DNA of 12,183 nt. Source: a virus (Duplodnaviria > Heunggongvirae > Uroviricota > Caudoviricetes). The stretch lies in IMG/VR virus record IMGVR_UViG_2651869691_000007, positions 1 to 12,183 of that record; one strand, written 5' to 3'. The notes beneath the pieces were generated by a model. That model did not search any database. It worked only from the letters and a program-made list of their open reading frames with translations, and was not told where the DNA came from. Of this stretch, positions 317 through 10,835 are shown in pieces (position 1 is the stretch's first letter; every line of letters begins with the position of its first letter). The translations under genes were made by a program, and so were the position numbers.

Positions 317-2650
317 TCAGGTTGTCGCAGGGTCGTCACATTTTGGCAGCCAGTCGCCGTAGCTTTCCTCTTTCAGTGTCAGGTTGGTCTGTATCCCCTG
401 TTTGGTATGGCGCTTCTCGTAATTCAGTCCGTATTCCTTCAGCATCACCGGTAGCCCCAGCCCGAACATTTTCAGACTGAGTACATTCCGGTAGCCGTTT
501 GCCTCCATGTAGGCCAGACAGGCGTGATAGAGGTATTTACGGTAATTACGCGGGATGATACTGGCGTTCCCCATATACATGCCGCTGGTCTGCGGCAGGG
601 TTTCCAGATAGCCGATAAAATCAAACGTCGGGTCGGCATCCCGTTTGATGTTCAGCGCCTCGTCTGAGTTCTGCTGGGACTGAAGCAGTGACCGGGCGAG
701 CATCGGGTCGCTGAACTTCTGCATCAGGTGACGCACGATGACCGCCAGCTCGCGGGTGATTTTGTCCTTAAGCTGCGGGTCGCGCTCCTGCGGGGCTATC
801 TGTTCCGGGAAGTGAATAATCACCCGCCGGCGTGACACGCCGCCGCTGCGGTCGGTGAAGCGCATCGGGTTATTGTTCACGGCCAGAATCACCGCCGGGA
901 TATGCGTGGAGTACGCATCCCGGTATTTCGGGTCAACGGACACCGCATCGCCGCCGGTGATGGCCTTGAGTCCGGCACCGTCGCCGCTCCATTTTTCCTG
1001 GTCCGGCAGGCGTATCAGTGAGAAGCCAGTTAACGCGGCACGTTCACGCGGGGATTCCAGCGTCTCAATGGTGGCCGACGTGGCGTTATCCTCCCCGGCC
1101 AGCAGGGTGGCGATTTCGGCCATGATACTTTTGCCGCTGCCGCCGGGACCGGTCACCTCCAGAAAGAGCTGCCAGTCGTAGCGGTTTGCCAGCACCATAA
1201 ACAGTGCGGCCAGAATCACGTCGCGTTTTTCCGCACGGCCACCGGCGGCACGGTCAAGCCAGCGCCAGAACGCGGGGGCGTGGGTCTCCAGCGTTTCACC
1301 GTCCACCGGCGGGGTGAAATCCACATCGCACAGGGTGCGCATCCAGTGTGACGGACTGTGCGGGTGGAACGTGCCGTTCTGCGTGTCGAGCACGCCGTTA
1401 CGAAAGCCAATCAGGCGGCGGGAGGGGGCTTCCTGCTGCGGAATAATCAGCTTCAGGGTGTCCACCACGGAGGCCACCTTCCCGGAGGAGAACGGCGCGC
1501 GCAGACGCTGAAACAGCCCGGCCACATCCCGGGCAAAGTCCTGTGGCGGCAGCACCTTCCAGACACCATTTTCATAGCGGGACAGAAGCTGGCCGTTGGC
1601 ATCGACCGCGAGCGCCTCGCCGTAATGCTCATAGATACGCATGGCCTTTTCGCTGGTACTCATGGCGGAAAACTCCGCTTCGCTCATGGTGTCGAACGGG
1701 CTTTCAGCCGGTGGCCGGATGGCATCATAAATGGCCTTACGGGTGGCCTCCCCGCCGTACTGCGTGAAGGCATCATTCCAGTCACCGAAGACCGGCGGCA
1801 GGGCAACAACACCCTCACACGCATCTGCGGCTGCGGCGGCTTTTGTCTGGCCGTCACCGCTGAGGTCACGGTCTGCGGCAAGGACAATCTGACAGGCCGG
1901 ATACTTCTGCCGGGCAAGGCTGGCCAGAGAAAGGAGGTTCACGGAAGAAAGCGCCACCATCACCGTTTCACCGGTCAGGTGATGCACGGTAAGTGCGGTC
2001 GCGTATCCCTCCGCTATCCACAGACGTTTTCCGGCCTGATTCTGTCCTTCAAAGATGTGACAGGTGCCCCTGACCTGCCCGCCTTTCAGAGTGCGCTTAC
2101 GGCCGTCAGCACTGATTAACTGAAGGTTAACCAGTTCGCCACTGTCGTCATACAGTGGCACCACAAGGTCACCGGCGCGCCAGCTCACGCCACCGGCTCT
2201 GTGTGTGCCGGTCAGCATCCGGCATTCCCGGTCGGGAAAGCCCTTGCGGGTCAGGTAGGCGTTACCGGTTCCGGGACGGGTTTTTGCCATCAGGGTTTGT
2301 GCCAGTGCGGCGGCGTTCTTCCGGGCAGCGTCTGTTTCAGCGCCGGCGGCGGCCGTCACTGCCGGGTCAGCCGGGGGCAGGCTGCCGGTCACGGCAGCCA
2401 CCTTTGCGGCCGCGTCGGACGGGGAGACACCAAACACCTTTTCAACCAGTTTCAGGCCGTCACCGGCACCACACTGATTGCAGTACCAGGTGCCGCGCCC
2501 CTCCCTGTCATCAAAACGGAAGCGGTCACTCCCGCCACAGACCGGACAGGGCTGATGACGGTTTTTCAGCACCTGAATCCCCAGCGCCGGGAGAATACGC
2601 GGCCAGTGGCCGAGCGCATGGCTGACGGTGGCGGTTACGTTCATTTTCAT
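317..2650 (-). CDS. alpha: P4 alpha-type DNA primase-helicase (777 aa)
   Basis: 777-aa ORF; N-terminal Cys4 zinc ribbon (CPVCGG...YCNQCG), TOPRIM-like segment (WIAEGYATAL...LAADRDLSGDG), Walker A GPGGSGKS. Length and N-terminus match recalled P4 alpha. The C-terminal domain would bind the TGTTCACC iterons seen at ori and crr. Confidence 0.9.
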   Translation of the reverse strand: MKMNVTATVSHALGHWPRILPALGIQVLKNRHQPCPVCGGSDRFRFDDREGRGTWYCNQCGAGDGLKLVEKVFGVSPSDAAAKVAAVTGSLPPADPAVTAAAGAETDAARKNAAALAQTLMAKTRPGTGNAYLTRKGFPDRECRMLTGTHRAGGVSWRAGDLVVPLYDDSGELVNLQLISADGRKRTLKGGQVRGTCHIFEGQNQAGKRLWIAEGYATALTVHHLTGETVMVALSSVNLLSLASLARQKYPACQIVLAADRDLSGDGQTKAAAAADACEGVVALPPVFGDWNDAFTQYGGEATRKAIYDAIRPPAESPFDTMSEAEFSAMSTSEKAMRIYEHYGEALAVDANGQLLSRYENGVWKVLPPQDFARDVAGLFQRLRAPFSSGKVASVVDTLKLIIPQQEAPSRRLIGFRNGVLDTQNGTFHPHSPSHWMRTLCDVDFTPPVDGETLETHAPAFWRWLDRAAGGRAEKRDVILAALFMVLANRYDWQLFLEVTGPGGSGKSIMAEIATLLAGEDNATSATIETLESPRERAALTGFSLIRLPDQEKWSGDGAGLKAITGGDAVSVDPKYRDAYSTHIPAVILAVNNNPMRFTDRSGGVSRRRVIIHFPEQIAPQERDPQLKDKITRELAVIVRHLMQKFSDPMLARSLLQSQQNSDEALNIKRDADPTFDFIGYLETLPQTSGMYMGNASIIPRNYRKYLYHACLAYMEANGYRNVLSLKMFGLGLPVMLKEYGLNYEKRHTKQGIQTNLTLKEESYGDWLPKCDDPATT

Positions 2651-3576: not shown

Positions 3577-3856
3577 GCGTCCTGTCTCCCCGGTCTTTCT
3601 GCTGGGCGAGAAAATCGCGGCACAGGCCTTTGGCTTTCAGCTCATTCAGCACAAAATCAATATCTTCATTCAGGTAGCTGAAAATATGCGGAATGTAGAG
3701 CTGATGCAGGCCGGAGAGTTCACGGTGAATCAAATCACCCCCAACAAACCGGGATACGGCGCTGGCGCGGTTGAGCTTATGGTAAGCCTCAATGCTGAGG
3801 TGTTCACGGGCGTCATGACGCGCTGAGACGGTCTGAGGGGCTTTTTTATTACGCAC
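3569..3856 (-). CDS. epsilon: P4 epsilon-like protein (95 aa; derepressor of helper prophage in P4)
   Basis: Tail of the 177-aa track ORF. Proposed start is GTG at 3856 with GGAGG 6 nt upstream, giving 95 aa ([15 protein letters not shown]...). The GTG overlaps the last codons of kil; the stop overlaps the orf151 start by 8 nt. Confidence 0.65.
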
Positions 3857-4046
3857 GGGACACCTCCACCACCGGCAGACGGGCAGCAAGGGAGAGCACA
3901 TAGTCACGGACAAGGGAACGGCGGGCGCTGCGTTCATCACCGGCGACGGTGCGAAGCATACAGATACGGGGATGACGGTCTGCGCGACGGACAGCCGCAA
4001 ACACAAAGACAAATTCAGGGTGTGAGGGGGTAAGGGTTGTAGCCAT
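3849..4046 (-). CDS. kil: kil-like 65-codon ORF, first translated gene after PLE
   Basis: ATG at 4046 preceded by strong SD AAGGAGG (4055-4060); 65 aa ([12 protein letters not shown]...VVEVSRA); forms the in-frame C-terminal part of the longer eta ORF, as described for P4 kil/eta. Confidence 0.6.
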
Positions 4047-4448
4047 GATGGCAGCCTCCTTGAAGTAACAGTTACAGCTACCACTAGAGTTCCTACGCTC
4101 ATGGGTGGTAGCCCGGACGGGGGTAGGAATACCGGCCTTCAAGGAAACCGGCCAGCCCGAAGGCTGCCCCGCCCGGACCACCATTATCTGACAGAGGCTA
4201 CGGTTTAAAAACCACAGCCAGAAAAACAGGTGTGCCGAAGCAACGACGTAAAAAAAGACGCATGGCGCGTCATATGTCGCCTTGAAGTAACTCGGGTTCC
4301 TACGCCCGGCTGCCGATTTTGCGGCAGCGGAAAAACTATATCCGCAAATGCCGGAAAAAGGCAAGCCAGAAAAAGGGAGTTTTTGCAGAGCGGGCATCAT
4401 CATGCGTCGTACCCCCGTTTGCGTCCGGCAATGCGTCCGGCCATCCAT
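3849..4448 (-). CDS. eta: eta-like long ORF (199 aa) starting upstream of PLE and containing kil in frame
   Basis: 199-aa ORF whose ATG (4448) lies upstream of the predicted PLE (4335-4364) and which spans the cI region. Matches the nested eta/kil arrangement reported for P4; translation is expected only from PLL transcripts. Confidence 0.4.
4104..4172 (-). ncRNA. cI: cI immunity RNA region (contains seqB)
   Basis: Minus-strand transcript 4172->4104 (69 nt) is closed by GGUGGU/ACCACC, has an internal CAGCC-UUCG-GGCUG tetraloop hairpin, and carries seqB (4123-4144) complementary to seqA (4280-4305) and seqC (4058-4098). Processed ends cannot be set from sequence. Confidence 0.45.
4250..4271 (-). 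terminator. Hairpin plus U7 in the PLE leader (candidate attenuator/terminator between seqA and cI)
   Basis: Minus-strand RNA: GACGC-GCCAU-GCGUC (4257-4271) followed by U7 (4250-4256). The stem is short (5 bp), so efficiency is uncertain. Confidence 0.35.
4335..4364 (-). promoter_or_regulatory. Candidate sigma70 promoter PLE (-35 TTGCCT, 18-bp spacer, -10 TATAGT)
   Basis: On the minus strand: TTGCCT (4359-4364), 18-bp spacer, TATAGT (4335-4340); sits inside eta, just downstream of the vis stop and upstream of seqA, as expected for P4 PLE. Confidence 0.4.
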
Positions 4449-5146: not shown

Positions 5147-5218
5147 TCTGCAATGCGTCGTGTTGTTGTCCGGTGTACGTCACAATTTTCTCAACCTGAA
5201 GTGACGAGGAGCCGGAAA

Positions 5219-5928
5219 ATGTCTGACAACACCATCCCTGAATATCTGCAACCCGCACTGGCACAACTGGAAAAGGCCAGAGCCGCCCACCTTGAGAACG
5301 CCCGCCTGATGGATGAGACCGTCACGGCCATTGAACGGGCAGAGCAGGAAAAAAATGCGCTGACGACTGGCGCACGGCCTTTCGTGCAGCCAGTGGTGTC
5401 CTGAGCGACGAGCTGAAACAGCGCCACATTGAGCGCGTGGCACGCCGGGAGCTGGTACAGGAATATGACAATCTGGCCGTGGTGCTGAATTTTGAACGCG
5501 AACGCCTGAAAGGGGCGTGTGACAGCACGGCCACCGCCTACCGGAAGGCACATCATCACCTTCTGAGTCTGTATGCAGAGCATGAGCTGGAACACGCCCT
5601 GAATGAAACCTGTGAGGCGCTTGTCCGGGCAATGCATCTGAGCATTCTGGTACAGAAAAATCCGCTCGCCAACACCACCGGGCATCAGGGCTACGTCGCA
5701 CCCGATAAAGTTGTCATGCAGCAGGTGAAATCATCACTGGAACAGAAAATAAAACAGATGCAAATCAGCCTCACCGGCGAGCCGGTTCTCCGGCTGACCG
5801 GACTGTCAGCGGCAACGCTCCCGCACATGGATTATGAGGTGGCAGGCACACCGGCACAGCGCAAGGTGTGGCAGGACAAAATAGACCAGCAGGGAGCAGA
5901 GCTTAAGGCCAGAGGACTGCTGTCATGA
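5219..5928 (+). pseudogene. sid: sid (external capsid size-determination scaffold) interrupted by a frameshift
   Basis: ATG at 5219 (GAGGAG upstream; MSDNTIPEYLQPALAQ...) runs in frame 2 to TGA at 5402-5404. The continuation (…AFRAASGVLSDELKQRHIERVARRELVQEY… to 5928) is open in frame 1 from 5335. The two frames overlap only in 5335-5401, which contains an A7 run (5349-5355). A sequencing error is possible. Confidence 0.6.
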
Positions 5929-7272: not shown

Positions 7273-7962
7273 TCATTTATTTTGTAATGCCGCATCAAAT
7301 CTGGTCTTGAGATCTTGGAATGGGATAACGAGTTTATCGATATAATCTTTATTATTATTTTGTAGAATTGCTTCAACAAAATCATTTAGAGGTGCATAGT
7401 TTTCTAATACTTTAGAATCGATAAAATCTTTATAGGACATACATTCAGCACCAATGCTAAGGCTTTCACCTATATACTTTTGTTCAAGAGATCTAATACA
7501 AGGAAAACCAATATCGTTCTCTCGTAGGGCTATAGAAATATTTTTGATTAATTCAGTTATTAACATTTCATCATTAGTTGGTGAAAATACAGATGAATCT
7601 CTATTTTTCCTGAATTGATGTACCCAGCAAAAATATTGGCATAGATAGAATCTTGTACTATCAATATAATATTGATCCGACGATAGGTCATTGTGATCTT
7701 TAATATAACATAGCCTTCCTAAAAAACCATTTGCAGCACTAAGTAATGTTAACCCCCAACGTCCGATTTCAAGATCTCTTGCTTTTTTAAAATTATAAGC
7801 ACGTTCATCCTCTTTAATTCTCTGTTCACTTTCATATTTCAACTTATTTTTAAATGATTCTAACTCTCTTTTATCAATATGTTGTAAAAAAGCCTTACAA
7901 ACAAATCCAATAATTGCAAATGAAATGCTTGATGACAAAATACCTTCCCAAAAGCTACTCAT
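7273..7962 (-). CDS. Small membrane-anchored partner protein (229 aa) of the RT-nitrilase gene
   Basis: N-terminal hydrophobic helix (ILSSSISFAIIGFVCKAFL); ATG overlaps the upstream gene stop as ATGA (7959-7962) with GAGG SD; ~30% GC; no motif I can recognise in the soluble part. Confidence 0.75.
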   Translation of the reverse strand: MSSFWEGILSSSISFAIIGFVCKAFLQHIDKRELESFKNKLKYESEQRIKEDERAYNFKKARDLEIGRWGLTLLSAANGFLGRLCYIKDHNDLSSDQYYIDSTRFYLCQYFCWVHQFRKNRDSSVFSPTNDEMLITELIKNISIALRENDIGFPCIRSLEQKYIGESLSIGAECMSYKDFIDSKVLENYAPLNDFVEAILQNNNKDYIDKLVIPFQDLKTRFDAALQNK

Positions 7963-10835
7963 TTCTCACCTCGCTCTAATAGAGCATTATAGTCAAACCC
8001 TGGAGGATTGTGTTTAATAGTATCGGAGTTAATTCTGAATGAACGATATTGAGCCTCTCTCAATGCATATATATTTAAAGTAGTAGTTAGGATGCAATGG
8101 TTTTCCCCACCTTTTACATATATCTTATTTGAAATAGTGCTACTGGTCGGTTGTAGAACACAAGAACCGCCATAATGCGAAGTATTTGATTGAGCCACAT
8201 AACAATGTAAATCCCGTGTCGCTGACTCAGTGATATGTTGATAATAATTTATATCTTGATTCCATACGCAAGCAAATAAAATATCCAACTGCGAACGAAA
8301 TAATGCTCTATGCTCGATATTAGCCAGTTCAAAACAGTTGTATGTAGAAAATGATACGTTTTTCCACTTAATCAAATGATACCGTTGTTTACTAGGTTTA
8401 GGAGAGGATATTTTTAACCTTAAAGAATTCAGCATCGTAATCTCACTAGGTGCGTAATGATTTTTCACTCGAAAAACTAACATACTGGATTTGTGTTTAA
8501 AGTTTGAAGTATAAGGCAGCATTTCAACCAAAATATTATATGCGCGTTCGTTAATAACCCAATGCTCTAATCCGAAAATCAAAGATATTTGTTTTCTCCT
8601 TGAATGTGCTGCCATAAAAGGTAACCACGACACAGGAATTGATAACTCAGGGAGTAGTAATATCTGCACATTTTCTTCAGTTGCCGAGTTGAGAATACGA
8701 TAAAGGTTTCTTTGTCGTTCATAACTTAAATTTGGAGACTGATCTTTTCTGCAAGCACTTTCAATATTACGACGTTCAACTCTCATATTTGCCAACGCAA
8801 CTTTTATTGTGTCATTACCACTTCTATCATCAATTCCTACCTTTATTTCAAGAGCTTTATTATCTTTTATCTTAGTAACAGAGCAATTTTTTAAGTGATG
8901 CTTATTTTCATGCGTAAACTTATGTAGTTTTCTTGTATGAAGAGCATCAATCAAATCGAAAAGCTGCTTTTCATCAGCATGAATATATCTAGGGGTTTTA
9001 TTTAATTTATCATTATCAAGTGGAATACCATGCATCTTACTGTATAAATTCTCCTCAGTAAGATCTCCTTTATATTTAGTATAGTTAGCTAAAGGCCAAG
9101 ACACTAGATTATGACGAATCAAATTACTGCTTCTAAATCTTTCAATTAGAACAGACATTCCATCGGACTGTTTAATTAAAGATTTCAAACCTTCCAAAGC
9201 TCTATTTTGTGGCTCTTTATCACCTAAAATGACATTTAAATCTAACAAAGCCAAATTCAAACAAAGAGAAATATCAATGTATTTCTGCATTCCATTTTTA
9301 AGTTTTGGAGATATAACACTATCACCTTCCTTCCACTTCATTTTATTAATTGATTCTTTAATTTGTTTGTAAAAGGCGATTGAAAATCCATATTTTCTTG
9401 TAATTAATGTATACGATAGAACTTTCTCCCATAACCGACTGAACCTTAGAGAATTTTCACCTTTAAAAAACAGCGTTATTTGCTTTAAGGTATTCTCATT
9501 CGATGGAAGATTGCAAAGCCTATGAGCTAAGATATGTGATGATATATATTTTGATAATTCAGTTTCATTCTCTGCCAAACCTACAATACTTCTAAATTTA
9601 TTTGCCGAACCATCAAGTAATATATCATAAGCAAATTTATCGAGATCGCTAGATATATGTTCTTCCGGTAAAAAACGAAATGCACTGCTTCTGTTCTCAA
9701 TTTCTTGTTTGAAGACTTGTAAACCAGCCAAACTATGATCTTTATTGAAATAATGAAAAATCAATTTATCCTTTTGAATTGGTAATTCATGATAACTCTC
9801 GGTCAACGTAAAGCCTTTCTCATCATTCGCTGCCTGTTTGATGAATCCATTAAGGGTTCGCTCTATGAATTTTATTACTTCTTCACCTTTATCTTCTTTT
9901 TTAATGTCCGGAGATGAAAAAACTAAAAGAATATCATCCACATAGCGACCGTAGTACGATGGATTAATTTTTGATTTAATATCTTTATCAAAACCCATTA
10001 AATACCAATTAGATAATATGGCAGAAGAAGTAAATCCAATTGGAATGCCTTTTGATGAAGGAGTTGAATGTGTCACACCAATATATGGAGATATTTTCTC
10101 TCTGTATTTTTGATGCATCAACCTCAATTTACTATTCAACAACATAGAAAGAGCTTTAATTTCTTCTAATTGTTCTTCGTCAATAATTCTATCAATGGCA
10201 TCAAAATCTATATCTATATTATAATAAAAACCCTTAAGATCCAGAGAAAGAATTGCAACATCATTTCGCTCTTTTTCTATAACTTCTATCGCTTTATCGA
10301 TACCACCATCTCGCCATTTATTATAATTATCAATGTATCTTTCAAAGATATTTTTTGAGGAGTTTTTTGGCGCATCGAAACTATTCTTAGAATATTTTTT
10401 TATTACTTTTGATATTCTATTTCCATAAACCGAATCAGAAAACTTGTCATCTAGCATTGAACCAACAAAGATAGACCAGAGTGTTTCTATTAAATATATT
10501 TCAATAGGAGCAACGATCAAATAATTTACAGCACCTACTTTGTATTCATCTGATGTCTTATTATTACTTAAAAAAAGAGCTCCGCTCGTTTGCTCAATAT
10601 CCAAATGGCTATCAATTTTTTTTGGTAATAATTCAACATCAATTTTATTTAGCCACTCATTAAAGTTAATGTCATTATTATTTTCAAAAAAATCAACCAC
10701 TTTTTCTATTTTTTCGTCATAGAGAGAATCTTCAAATTGAGCGATTTCTTCCTTTAGGAAAAAATTTAAGTTTTCGTAGTAAGCATATGACTTAAGACAA
10801 TTATATGCACTAACAACTATATCTTTTGTAATCAT
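7959..10835 (-). CDS. Reverse transcriptase fused to C-terminal nitrilase (carbon-nitrogen hydrolase) domain, 958 aa; candidate defence-associated RT
   Basis: RT motifs: LSLDLKGFYYNIDIDF (aa 196-211), PIGFTSSAILSNWYL (aa 265-279), YGRYVDDILLVF with YVDD encoded at 9933-9944. CN-hydrolase signature: IKVALANMRV, LLLPE (Glu730, 8646-8648), FRVKNHY (Lys), YNCFE (Cys834 at 8334-8336, Glu836). N-terminal ~185 aa and the aa 310-670 region are unassigned. Confidence 0.85.
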   Translation of the reverse strand: MITKDIVVSAYNCLKSYAYYENLNFFLKEEIAQFEDSLYDEKIEKVVDFFENNNDINFNEWLNKIDVELLPKKIDSHLDIEQTSGALFLSNNKTSDEYKVGAVNYLIVAPIEIYLIETLWSIFVGSMLDDKFSDSVYGNRISKVIKKYSKNSFDAPKNSSKNIFERYIDNYNKWRDGGIDKAIEVIEKERNDVAILSLDLKGFYYNIDIDFDAIDRIIDEEQLEEIKALSMLLNSKLRLMHQKYREKISPYIGVTHSTPSSKGIPIGFTSSAILSNWYLMGFDKDIKSKINPSYYGRYVDDILLVFSSPDIKKEDKGEEVIKFIERTLNGFIKQAANDEKGFTLTESYHELPIQKDKLIFHYFNKDHSLAGLQVFKQEIENRSSAFRFLPEEHISSDLDKFAYDILLDGSANKFRSIVGLAENETELSKYISSHILAHRLCNLPSNENTLKQITLFFKGENSLRFSRLWEKVLSYTLITRKYGFSIAFYKQIKESINKMKWKEGDSVISPKLKNGMQKYIDISLCLNLALLDLNVILGDKEPQNRALEGLKSLIKQSDGMSVLIERFRSSNLIRHNLVSWPLANYTKYKGDLTEENLYSKMHGIPLDNDKLNKTPRYIHADEKQLFDLIDALHTRKLHKFTHENKHHLKNCSVTKIKDNKALEIKVGIDDRSGNDTIKVALANMRVERRNIESACRKDQSPNLSYERQRNLYRILNSATEENVQILLLPELSIPVSWLPFMAAHSRRKQISLIFGLEHWVINERAYNILVEMLPYTSNFKHKSSMLVFRVKNHYAPSEITMLNSLRLKISSPKPSKQRYHLIKWKNVSFSTYNCFELANIEHRALFRSQLDILFACVWNQDINYYQHITESATRDLHCYVAQSNTSHYGGSCVLQPTSSTISNKIYVKGGENHCILTTTLNIYALREAQYRSFRINSDTIKHNPPGFDYNALLERGEK

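Follow-up and report, generated by a model that had tools for sequence, protein, structure and literature searches.

The CI RNA of the satellite phage P4 has a length of 69 nt and is processed by RNase P and PNPase. It is an antisense RNA that brings about premature transcription termination through pairing with two targets, seqA and seqC (PMC4825925, PMC10111431), and it is processed from the leader transcript and stable (PMC4825925). The Rfam families C4 and isrK have been equated with the P4 CI RNA and with the P4 seqA leader, respectively (PMC3632133, PMC4825925, PMC10111431). Furthermore, the Rho-dependent terminator fragment timm of P4 corresponds to positions 8365-8209 of X51522 (PMC3177188), and eta is translated from the late promoter only, its translation preventing termination (PMC10111431). 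This mechanism has been known since the 1990s and belongs to the P4 textbook, the RNA family is curated in Rfam, and the module described here is an ordinary member of the system.

A second described system is immI of phages P1 and P7, where the c4 antisense RNA, with the targets a1b1 and a2b2, controls icd-ant. Biere et al. are said to have found in 1992 that P1 c4 acts by translational repression, termination being secondary. With the module in the window, i.e. the whole stretch of 12,183 nt of DNA that was analysed, immI shares the Rfam families C4 (RF01695) and c4-a1b1 (RF03163) of clan CL00128, the excision of the antisense RNA from the transcript that it controls, two boxes facing two target sites, and a downstream site overlapping the ribosome-binding site of an Icd-like gene. 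In contrast, the sequences of both are only distantly related, and the downstream cargo is an antirepressor in P1, while satellite replication and derepression genes take this place in the window. Moreover, the C4 precursor of P1/P7 is a substrate of RNase P (PMC2190699). A third system is IsrK of Salmonella Gifsy-1, a structural homologue of the P4 'SeqA RNA', for which STnc1160 has been suggested as the CI-like RNA (PMC4825925). Along its whole length, the leader found in the window fitted the isrK model (73.4 bits); however, IsrK is reported to activate, in trans, the translation of orf45-anrP of a lambdoid prophage, and no such role is suggested for the window leader.

As compared with these systems, the minus strand of the window very probably carries the module by which a P4-like satellite prophage secures its immunity and maintains lysogeny, working by an antisense mechanism of the P4 type, with an allele predicted to be heteroimmune to P4.

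Genomic setting of the satellite element

To begin with, the window matched P4 with an identity of 95% across 69% of its length, and its counterpart was found in the island adjoining tRNA-Leu in E. coli M19, with an identity of 99.5% end to end. Judging from these alignments, the window represents a satellite prophage of E. coli that resembles P4. The order of the genes was that of P4 (int, variable cargo region, psu, delta, sid, ori, vis/alpA, eta/kil, epsilon, orf151, orf106 and alpha), and the genes that mark a P4 satellite were present, namely int, psu, delta, sid (frameshifted), vis, eta/kil, epsilon and alpha, with int, alpha, epsilon, delta and psu as open reading frames. The parts of the immunity module (promoter, leader, seqA, cI, seqC and kil) were all located on the minus strand (Table 1). 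An immunity region of the P4 type had been proposed in the initial annotation, and the alignment with P4 bore this out, as the flanks of the region were 99.5-100% identical and the gene order was the same. The 306-bp immunity region was also found with at least 99% identity in 131 complete E. coli genomes. For the window, the outcome mainly concerns annotation: the stretch labelled in RefSeq as an 'ash family' pseudogene and an Icd-like gene is actually an RNA-based immunity module like that of P4, with all its parts.

Beside these genes, sid (plus strand, about 5194-5928), which has its role in capsid-size determination, presented a 25-bp deletion at ~5365 compared with both E. coli M19 and P4, resulting in a frameshift. 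The ability to redirect the capsid size of the helper may be lost in this copy and, given the frameshifted sid, the window element may be partly decayed. Alternatively, the deletion could be an assembly error.

Anatomy of the immunity module

Table 1. Features of the immunity module in the order of the minus strand, with positions in the window
Feature	Position	Strand	Basis
eta ORF, 199 codons, Phage_ASH	3849..4448	minus	in frame with kil
Putative constitutive early-left promoter, equivalent of P4 PLE, TTGCCT-18 nt-TATAGT	4335..4364	minus	sigma-70-like scan and P4 identity
Leader RNA (isrK / 'SeqA RNA' homologue)	4251..4328	minus	Rfam isrK and c4-a1b1, fold
seqA, upstream CI target	4280..4305	minus	box complements at 4303..4297 and 4287..4280
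Candidate intrinsic terminator, equivalent of P4 t1, GACGCGCCAUGCGUC then U7	4250..4271	minus	terminator scan
CI RNA gene (C4 antisense RNA family)	4101..4188	minus	Rfam C4, fold, stem covariation
seqB, CI pairing face	4121..4147	minus	Rfam C4 model and fold
seqC, downstream CI target	4055..4098	minus	runs into kil ribosome-binding site
kil ORF, 65 codons, Icd-like cell-division inhibitor	3849..4046	minus	first gene after leader
Equivalent of P4 timm (Rho-dependent terminator fragment)	3890..4046	minus	aligned to P4; inside kil

A single sigma-70-like site was found between positions 3700 and 4750, at 4364..4335, where the identity with P4 was 100% and from which transcription was predicted to start near position 4328. 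By its likeness to P4, this site may be taken as an active promoter. The leader starting there was predicted to present, in this order, hairpin 1, hairpin 2 with GUAGGAA in its loop, a single-stranded CUUCAAGG and the terminator hairpin. It reached 73.4 bits with the isrK model (RF01394, gathering score of 50) over 4328..4251, and 49.6 bits with the c4-a1b1 model (RF03163, gathering score of 46.7) over 4341..4289, both matches lying upstream of the C4 RNA and on the same strand. The terminator hairpin (4271..4257, with a tail of U7) was the sole terminator-like site in the scanned region, located at the position of t1 in P4 and differing from it by one base, and its role would be that of the P4 site. 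On the other hand, a possible antiterminator in the leader (GGCG-CGCC) was discarded, being only 4 bp long, absent from the minimum free energy (MFE) fold and not kept in every locus.

The RNA that follows the leader matched the C4 model (RF01695) at 4188..4101 of the minus strand, with 86.1 bits (gathering score of 45, E = 2.8e-16) over positions 1-87 of the 87 of the model. Thus, the three Rfam models C4, isrK and c4-a1b1 were all found above their gathering scores and in the expected order. The core of this RNA (4183..4106) was predicted to fold into a closed 17-bp stem with two hairpins (MFE of -52.7 kcal/mol, z = -5.35), which is the C4 architecture, with the pairing boxes in the loop of the second hairpin and in the 3' junction. 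The bounds first proposed for the cI RNA, 4104-4172, fared less well, as the corresponding 69-mer (4172..4104) lacks most of the 5' arm, 11 nt being cut off, and its fold was not more stable than those of its shuffles (z = -0.48, compared to the z = -5.35 of the core). Folding was good for a centred 69-mer (4178..4110; z = -3.95), and the earlier bounds are probably offset by several bases. As for its processing and its stability, the CI RNA of the window element can be expected to resemble that of P4.

The kil gene was 99.5% identical to that of P4, and the identical gene of E. coli M19 is labelled in RefSeq as 'host cell division inhibitor Icd-like protein'. The timm-equivalent inside it differed from P4 by one mismatch, and Rho-dependent termination would occur there if it behaves as in P4. 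The eta frame spans the promoter, seqA, the terminator, cI and seqC, and the Pfam domain Phage_ASH (118 bits, residues 37-146) nearly coincides with the RNA module.

Pairing boxes and their targets

On the plus strand, seqA (4280-4305) reads CCTTGAAGTAACTCGGGTTCCTACGC, seqB (4123-4144) reads GTAGGAATACCGGCCTTCAAGG, and seqC (4058-4098) reads CCTTGAAGTAAC...GTTCCTACGC. The corresponding minus-strand sequences are GCGUAGGAACCCGAGUUACUUCAAGG (4305..4280), CCUUGAAGGCCGGUAUUCCUAC (4144..4123) and GCGUAGGAAC...CUUCAAGG (4098..4058), so that the coordinates given to the three elements in the initial annotation all agree with the sequence. Within seqB, box 1 is (UUU)CCUUGAAG at 4147..4137, in the loop of CI hairpin 2, and box 2 is UUCCUAC at 4129..4123, in the unpaired CI junction. 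The complements of these boxes are found in seqA as GUAGGAA (4303..4297) and CUUCAAGG (4287..4280), and in seqC as GUAGGAA (4096..4090) and, after a looped-out insert of ~17 nt, CUUCAAGG (4065..4058). Therefore, seqB is complementary both to seqA upstream and to seqC downstream on one transcript, and the spacing between the boxes in the two targets differs by the 17-nt insert.

The composite motif GTAGGAA-N(5-30)-CTTCAAGG had exactly three matches in the 12,183 bases when both strands were considered, corresponding to seqA (4303..4280) and seqC (4096..4058) on the minus strand and to the complement of seqB (4123-4144) on the plus strand. In 200 dinucleotide-preserving shuffles, it had a mean of 0.00 matches, none of the shuffles containing any. 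Moreover, a search of the window for both box complements within 60 nt returned seqA and seqC alone on the transcribed strand. In seqC, as had been claimed from the letters alone, CUUCAAGG (4065..4058) overlaps the ribosome-binding site AGGAGG (4060..4055; CCTCCT at 4055-4060 of the plus strand). This site is followed 8 nt downstream by the ATG of kil (4046..4044). The pairing of CI with seqC over this site would comprise 8 Watson-Crick pairs plus A-U, G-U and G-U across AGGAGG.

Regarding accessibility, the predicted cost of opening both boxes was 1.0 kcal/mol for seqA and 6.1 kcal/mol for seqC, and within CI it was 0.0 kcal/mol for box 2 and 2.6 kcal/mol for box 1. In the co-folding that had been proposed as a check, RNAcofold returned a ddG of ~0 without intermolecular pairs, because contacts in a loop and a junction are not representable by it, and the pairing was therefore assessed from duplex and opening energies. 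The middle box of seqC (4081-4090, minus strand) was CUCUAG in the window and CUCCGG, which pairs with GCCGG of CI, in nearly all relatives. The predicted seqC duplex thus had -25.7 kcal/mol in the window, compared to about -31 kcal/mol in the relatives with the same boxes (~5 kcal/mol weaker).

When the duplex energy with seqB was scanned along the whole window, energy by itself did not discriminate seqA and seqC from GC-rich sites, the latter scoring high as they pair through the GCCGG part of the stem. Among these, the site at 464..433 of the minus strand (in alpha, on the transcript of the left operon; -28.5 kcal/mol with the seqB region) and the GC-rich sites at ~2729-2760 of the plus strand and at 5292..5271, which score like seqA and seqC, were without both box complements and were judged to be due to chance.

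Comparison with P4 and immunity specificity

P4 presents the same genome position, gene order, promoter, leader hairpins, terminator and CI fold, and its targets are likewise bipartite, with a seqC that overlaps the ribosome-binding site of kil. Nevertheless, the identity with P4 was mosaic. It reached 100% upstream through the promoter and 99.5% through kil, whereas it was 80% in seqA, 97% in the terminator, 80% in CI and 64% in seqC, and only 32% in the spacer between the terminator and cI (4189-4249), a spacer shortened by 45 nt relative to P4. With a spacer so divergent between flanks that are 99.5-100% identical, a recombinational exchange of the immunity cassette seems likely. The shortening of the spacer consisted of three deletions (6, 22 and 17 nt), and the net change preserves the eta frame.

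The pairing boxes themselves also differed. Box 1 is CCUUGAAG in the window and CCUGUGAA in P4, differing at 5 of the 8 aligned positions, and box 2 is UUCCUAC in the window and UUCUCAC in P4, differing at 2 of 7; the middle box of seqC is stronger in P4. The changes in box 1 and box 2 were matched by complementary changes in both seqA and seqC. For seqA, the predicted cognate duplex had -24.9 kcal/mol, compared to -14.4 and -12.2 kcal/mol for the crosses with P4, and for seqC the respective values were -29.8 kcal/mol compared to -22.5 and -16.5 kcal/mol. The cross duplexes were thus predicted to be 7-18 kcal/mol weaker than the cognate ones. The boxes of the window element are not those of P4, and cross-pairing as expected within one immunity group was not predicted. 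As the boxes differ at all three sites, the element would be self-immune but not immune to P4, and vice versa, i.e. it is probably heteroimmune to P4 in both directions. That P4 has relatives with which it is heteroimmune, e.g. phiR73, is an old idea. Hence, of the match with the P4 mechanism that had been drawn initially, the homology of the module and its pairing stood, and the boxes turned out to differ, belonging to another immunity allele. No experiments on the window allele were found in the literature searched. The prediction is that a widespread E. coli satellite confers no immunity to P4, nor P4 to this satellite.

Covariation among related loci

Related loci were gathered by patterns constraining seqB only, so that seqA and seqC were outside the selection, with 25 loci from species genomes, 7 from E. 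coli and about 80 from viral contigs. For every locus examined, duplex prediction placed a fitting seqA upstream and a fitting seqC downstream, the latter ending in GGAG plus ATG, and seqC ended in the ribosome-binding site in all the 32 loci that were aligned. The pairing between seqA and seqB was kept in 93.3% of the cells of these 32 loci, compared to 77.9% after shuffling and 40-58% after sliding. Double changes were found in 12 of its 15 pairs, and the double-change cells amounted to 73, compared to 19.8 expected from shuffling. Similarly, the pairing between seqB and seqC was kept in 93.5% of the cells, compared to 81.4% after shuffling and 31-54% after sliding, with double changes in 13 of 23 pairs and a total of 78 double-change cells (18.2 in the shuffles). 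In both cases, none of 500 shuffles reached a count as high, although these counts overstate independence, the loci being related by descent; yet the ~26 variants of box 1 and ~10 variants of box 2 have matched partners. Together with the composite motif, this covariation upheld the complementarity of seqA and seqC to seqB that had been noticed in the initial annotation. Moreover, G-U pairs were accepted between seqB and seqC (e.g. GU in 25 and GC in 4 loci at columns 256-316), and such tolerance points to pairing of the minus-strand RNA rather than to a symmetry of the DNA.

The same conservation was found in the folds. The closing stem of CI was paired in 98.9%, with double changes in 11 of 17 pairs among these related loci, while CI hairpin 2 was fixed by the search patterns and is hence uninformative as evidence of covariation. 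In the leader, hairpin 1 was paired in 98.2%, with double changes in 6 of 7 pairs, hairpin 2 in 100%, and the stem of the terminator in 91% across the loci.

A larger set of 131 unique regions was then considered for the box complements. Perfect complements of box 1 appeared in seqA in 115 regions and in seqC in 115, and perfect complements of box 2 in 123 and 121 regions, respectively. Non-cognate complements of box 1 were found in only 25 out of 15,354 comparisons. What the analysis shows of the module is its anatomy, the RNA families to which it belongs, its complementarity and its covariation in evolution, and its matched variation provides a clean case of covariation between molecules.

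Mode of action and alternative readings

For the window element, transcription, processing, termination and translational repression are carried over from experiments on P4 and P1, according to which the module would act as follows. The constitutive promoter at 4364..4335 would give rise to a leader with seqA and a weak intrinsic terminator, and the read-through transcript would hold the tRNA-like RNA of the C4 family (core 4183..4106), to be excised as the stable CI RNA. Two single-stranded boxes would be presented by CI, CCUUGAAG in the hairpin loop and UUCCUAC in the junction, and these would pair with seqA and seqC on later transcripts of the same promoter. Pairing with seqA would favour a stop at the nearby terminator, by which the synthesis of CI would limit itself, and pairing with seqC would bury the ribosome-binding site of kil, leaving kil untranslated. 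As the timm-equivalent lies inside kil, a block of kil translation should expose it, and the untranslated kil RNA would then be terminated at a t4-like site and at the Rho-dependent timm. In this way, the derepression and replication genes epsilon, orf151, orf106 and alpha would remain off.

It is also conceivable, albeit rather unlikely, that the translational route dominates, as in c4 of P1/P7, with the block of seqC and Rho-dependent polarity silencing the operon, seqA and the terminator only autoregulating CI, and no antisense-induced terminator being involved. This proposal concerns the dominant route and leaves the identity of the element undisputed. Briani et al. are said to have found in 2000 that CI promotes termination at t1 and t4, which are Rho-independent sites, and that timm is dispensable for immunity, which speaks against it. 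The ending of seqC in the ribosome-binding site in 32 of 32 loci, a timm-equivalent within kil that is nearly identical to that of P4, the Icd-like nature of kil, the grouping of CI with P1 c4 in Rfam, and the prevention of termination by eta translation (PMC10111431) would all fit a translational route. However, seqA co-varies as tightly as seqC, and it is cited as essential for establishing P4 lysogeny (PMC3632133).

The remaining readings are poorly supported. In particular, the module is improbable to be a non-functional remnant in a decaying prophage, whose features would be inherited and control nothing. Such decay would agree with the 25-bp frameshifting deletion in sid and with the weakened middle box of seqC, but the promoter, the leader hairpins, the terminator and the CI stems are all intact, as are both boxes at each of the three sites, the ribosome-binding site and kil. 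Moreover, the reading frames of int, alpha, epsilon, delta and psu are open, and identity over the 306 bp amounts to at least 99% in 131 complete E. coli genomes. A repeated peptide of Eta (Ash family) as the source of the likeness between seqA and seqC, the complementarity of seqB being incidental, is a very remote prospect. The eta ORF of 199 codons does cover the region, with Phage_ASH at residues 37-146, and its frame is open in 23 of the 32 related loci, but boxes and pairings alike are retained in the 9 loci whose frame bears stops, the changes keep the three-site complementarity, including G-U pairs, and not the encoded peptide, and the scores of the RNA covariance models are high. Finally, repeats acting at the DNA level, e.g. 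inverted-repeat operators for Vis/AlpA, can practically be dismissed in spite of the AlpA-family helix-turn-helix gene directly upstream, since only one of the strands accepts substitutions of the G-U type, the boxes lie in the loop and the junction of a conserved RNA fold, and the inter-box spacing of seqA and seqC differs by the 17-nt insert.

Allelic diversity of the boxes

Among P4-like elements, the antisense RNA locus has many variants. In the 131 unique regions, about 26 variants of box 1 and about 10 variants of box 2 were found, giving rise to 48 combinations, with some of the rare box classes being one-base register artefacts of the search pattern. The window allele was the commonest in this sample, appearing in 18 of the 131 unique regions, while the P4 allele was rare. 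The boxes were also seen to reassort, as box 1 CCAATAAG appeared with TTCCTAC, CTGCAAA or ACGCCAA as box 2, and the family extended to Pseudomonas (loci L002, L009, L015 and L022).

This combinatorial variation of two boxes is more interesting than the window module itself, and no systematic account of it in P4-like immunity was found in the literature searched. Rather than being fixed in sequence, the immunity module may serve as an address code of two hypervariable boxes, a proposal for which we see the chances as evenly split. If its alleles are functionally orthogonal, satellites would be diversifying their RNA immunity, which would let them co-exist with or superinfect one another. Such a code would need three sites to change in concert, all of them within the coding frame of eta. 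Moreover, the matched three-site variation provides naturally occurring antisense-target pairs that are short and probably orthogonal.

Cargo region

The cargo region between int and psu (7273-10835, minus strand) harboured a two-gene reverse-transcriptase system of the defence type. It consisted of an RT_UG5-nitrilase of 958 aa (2254 bits against the PADLOC models) and its RTasTM partner of 229 aa (541 bits against the PADLOC models). The reverse transcriptase was intact in the window, whereas the annotation of E. coli M19 gives its copy as a pseudogene, interrupted by an internal stop.
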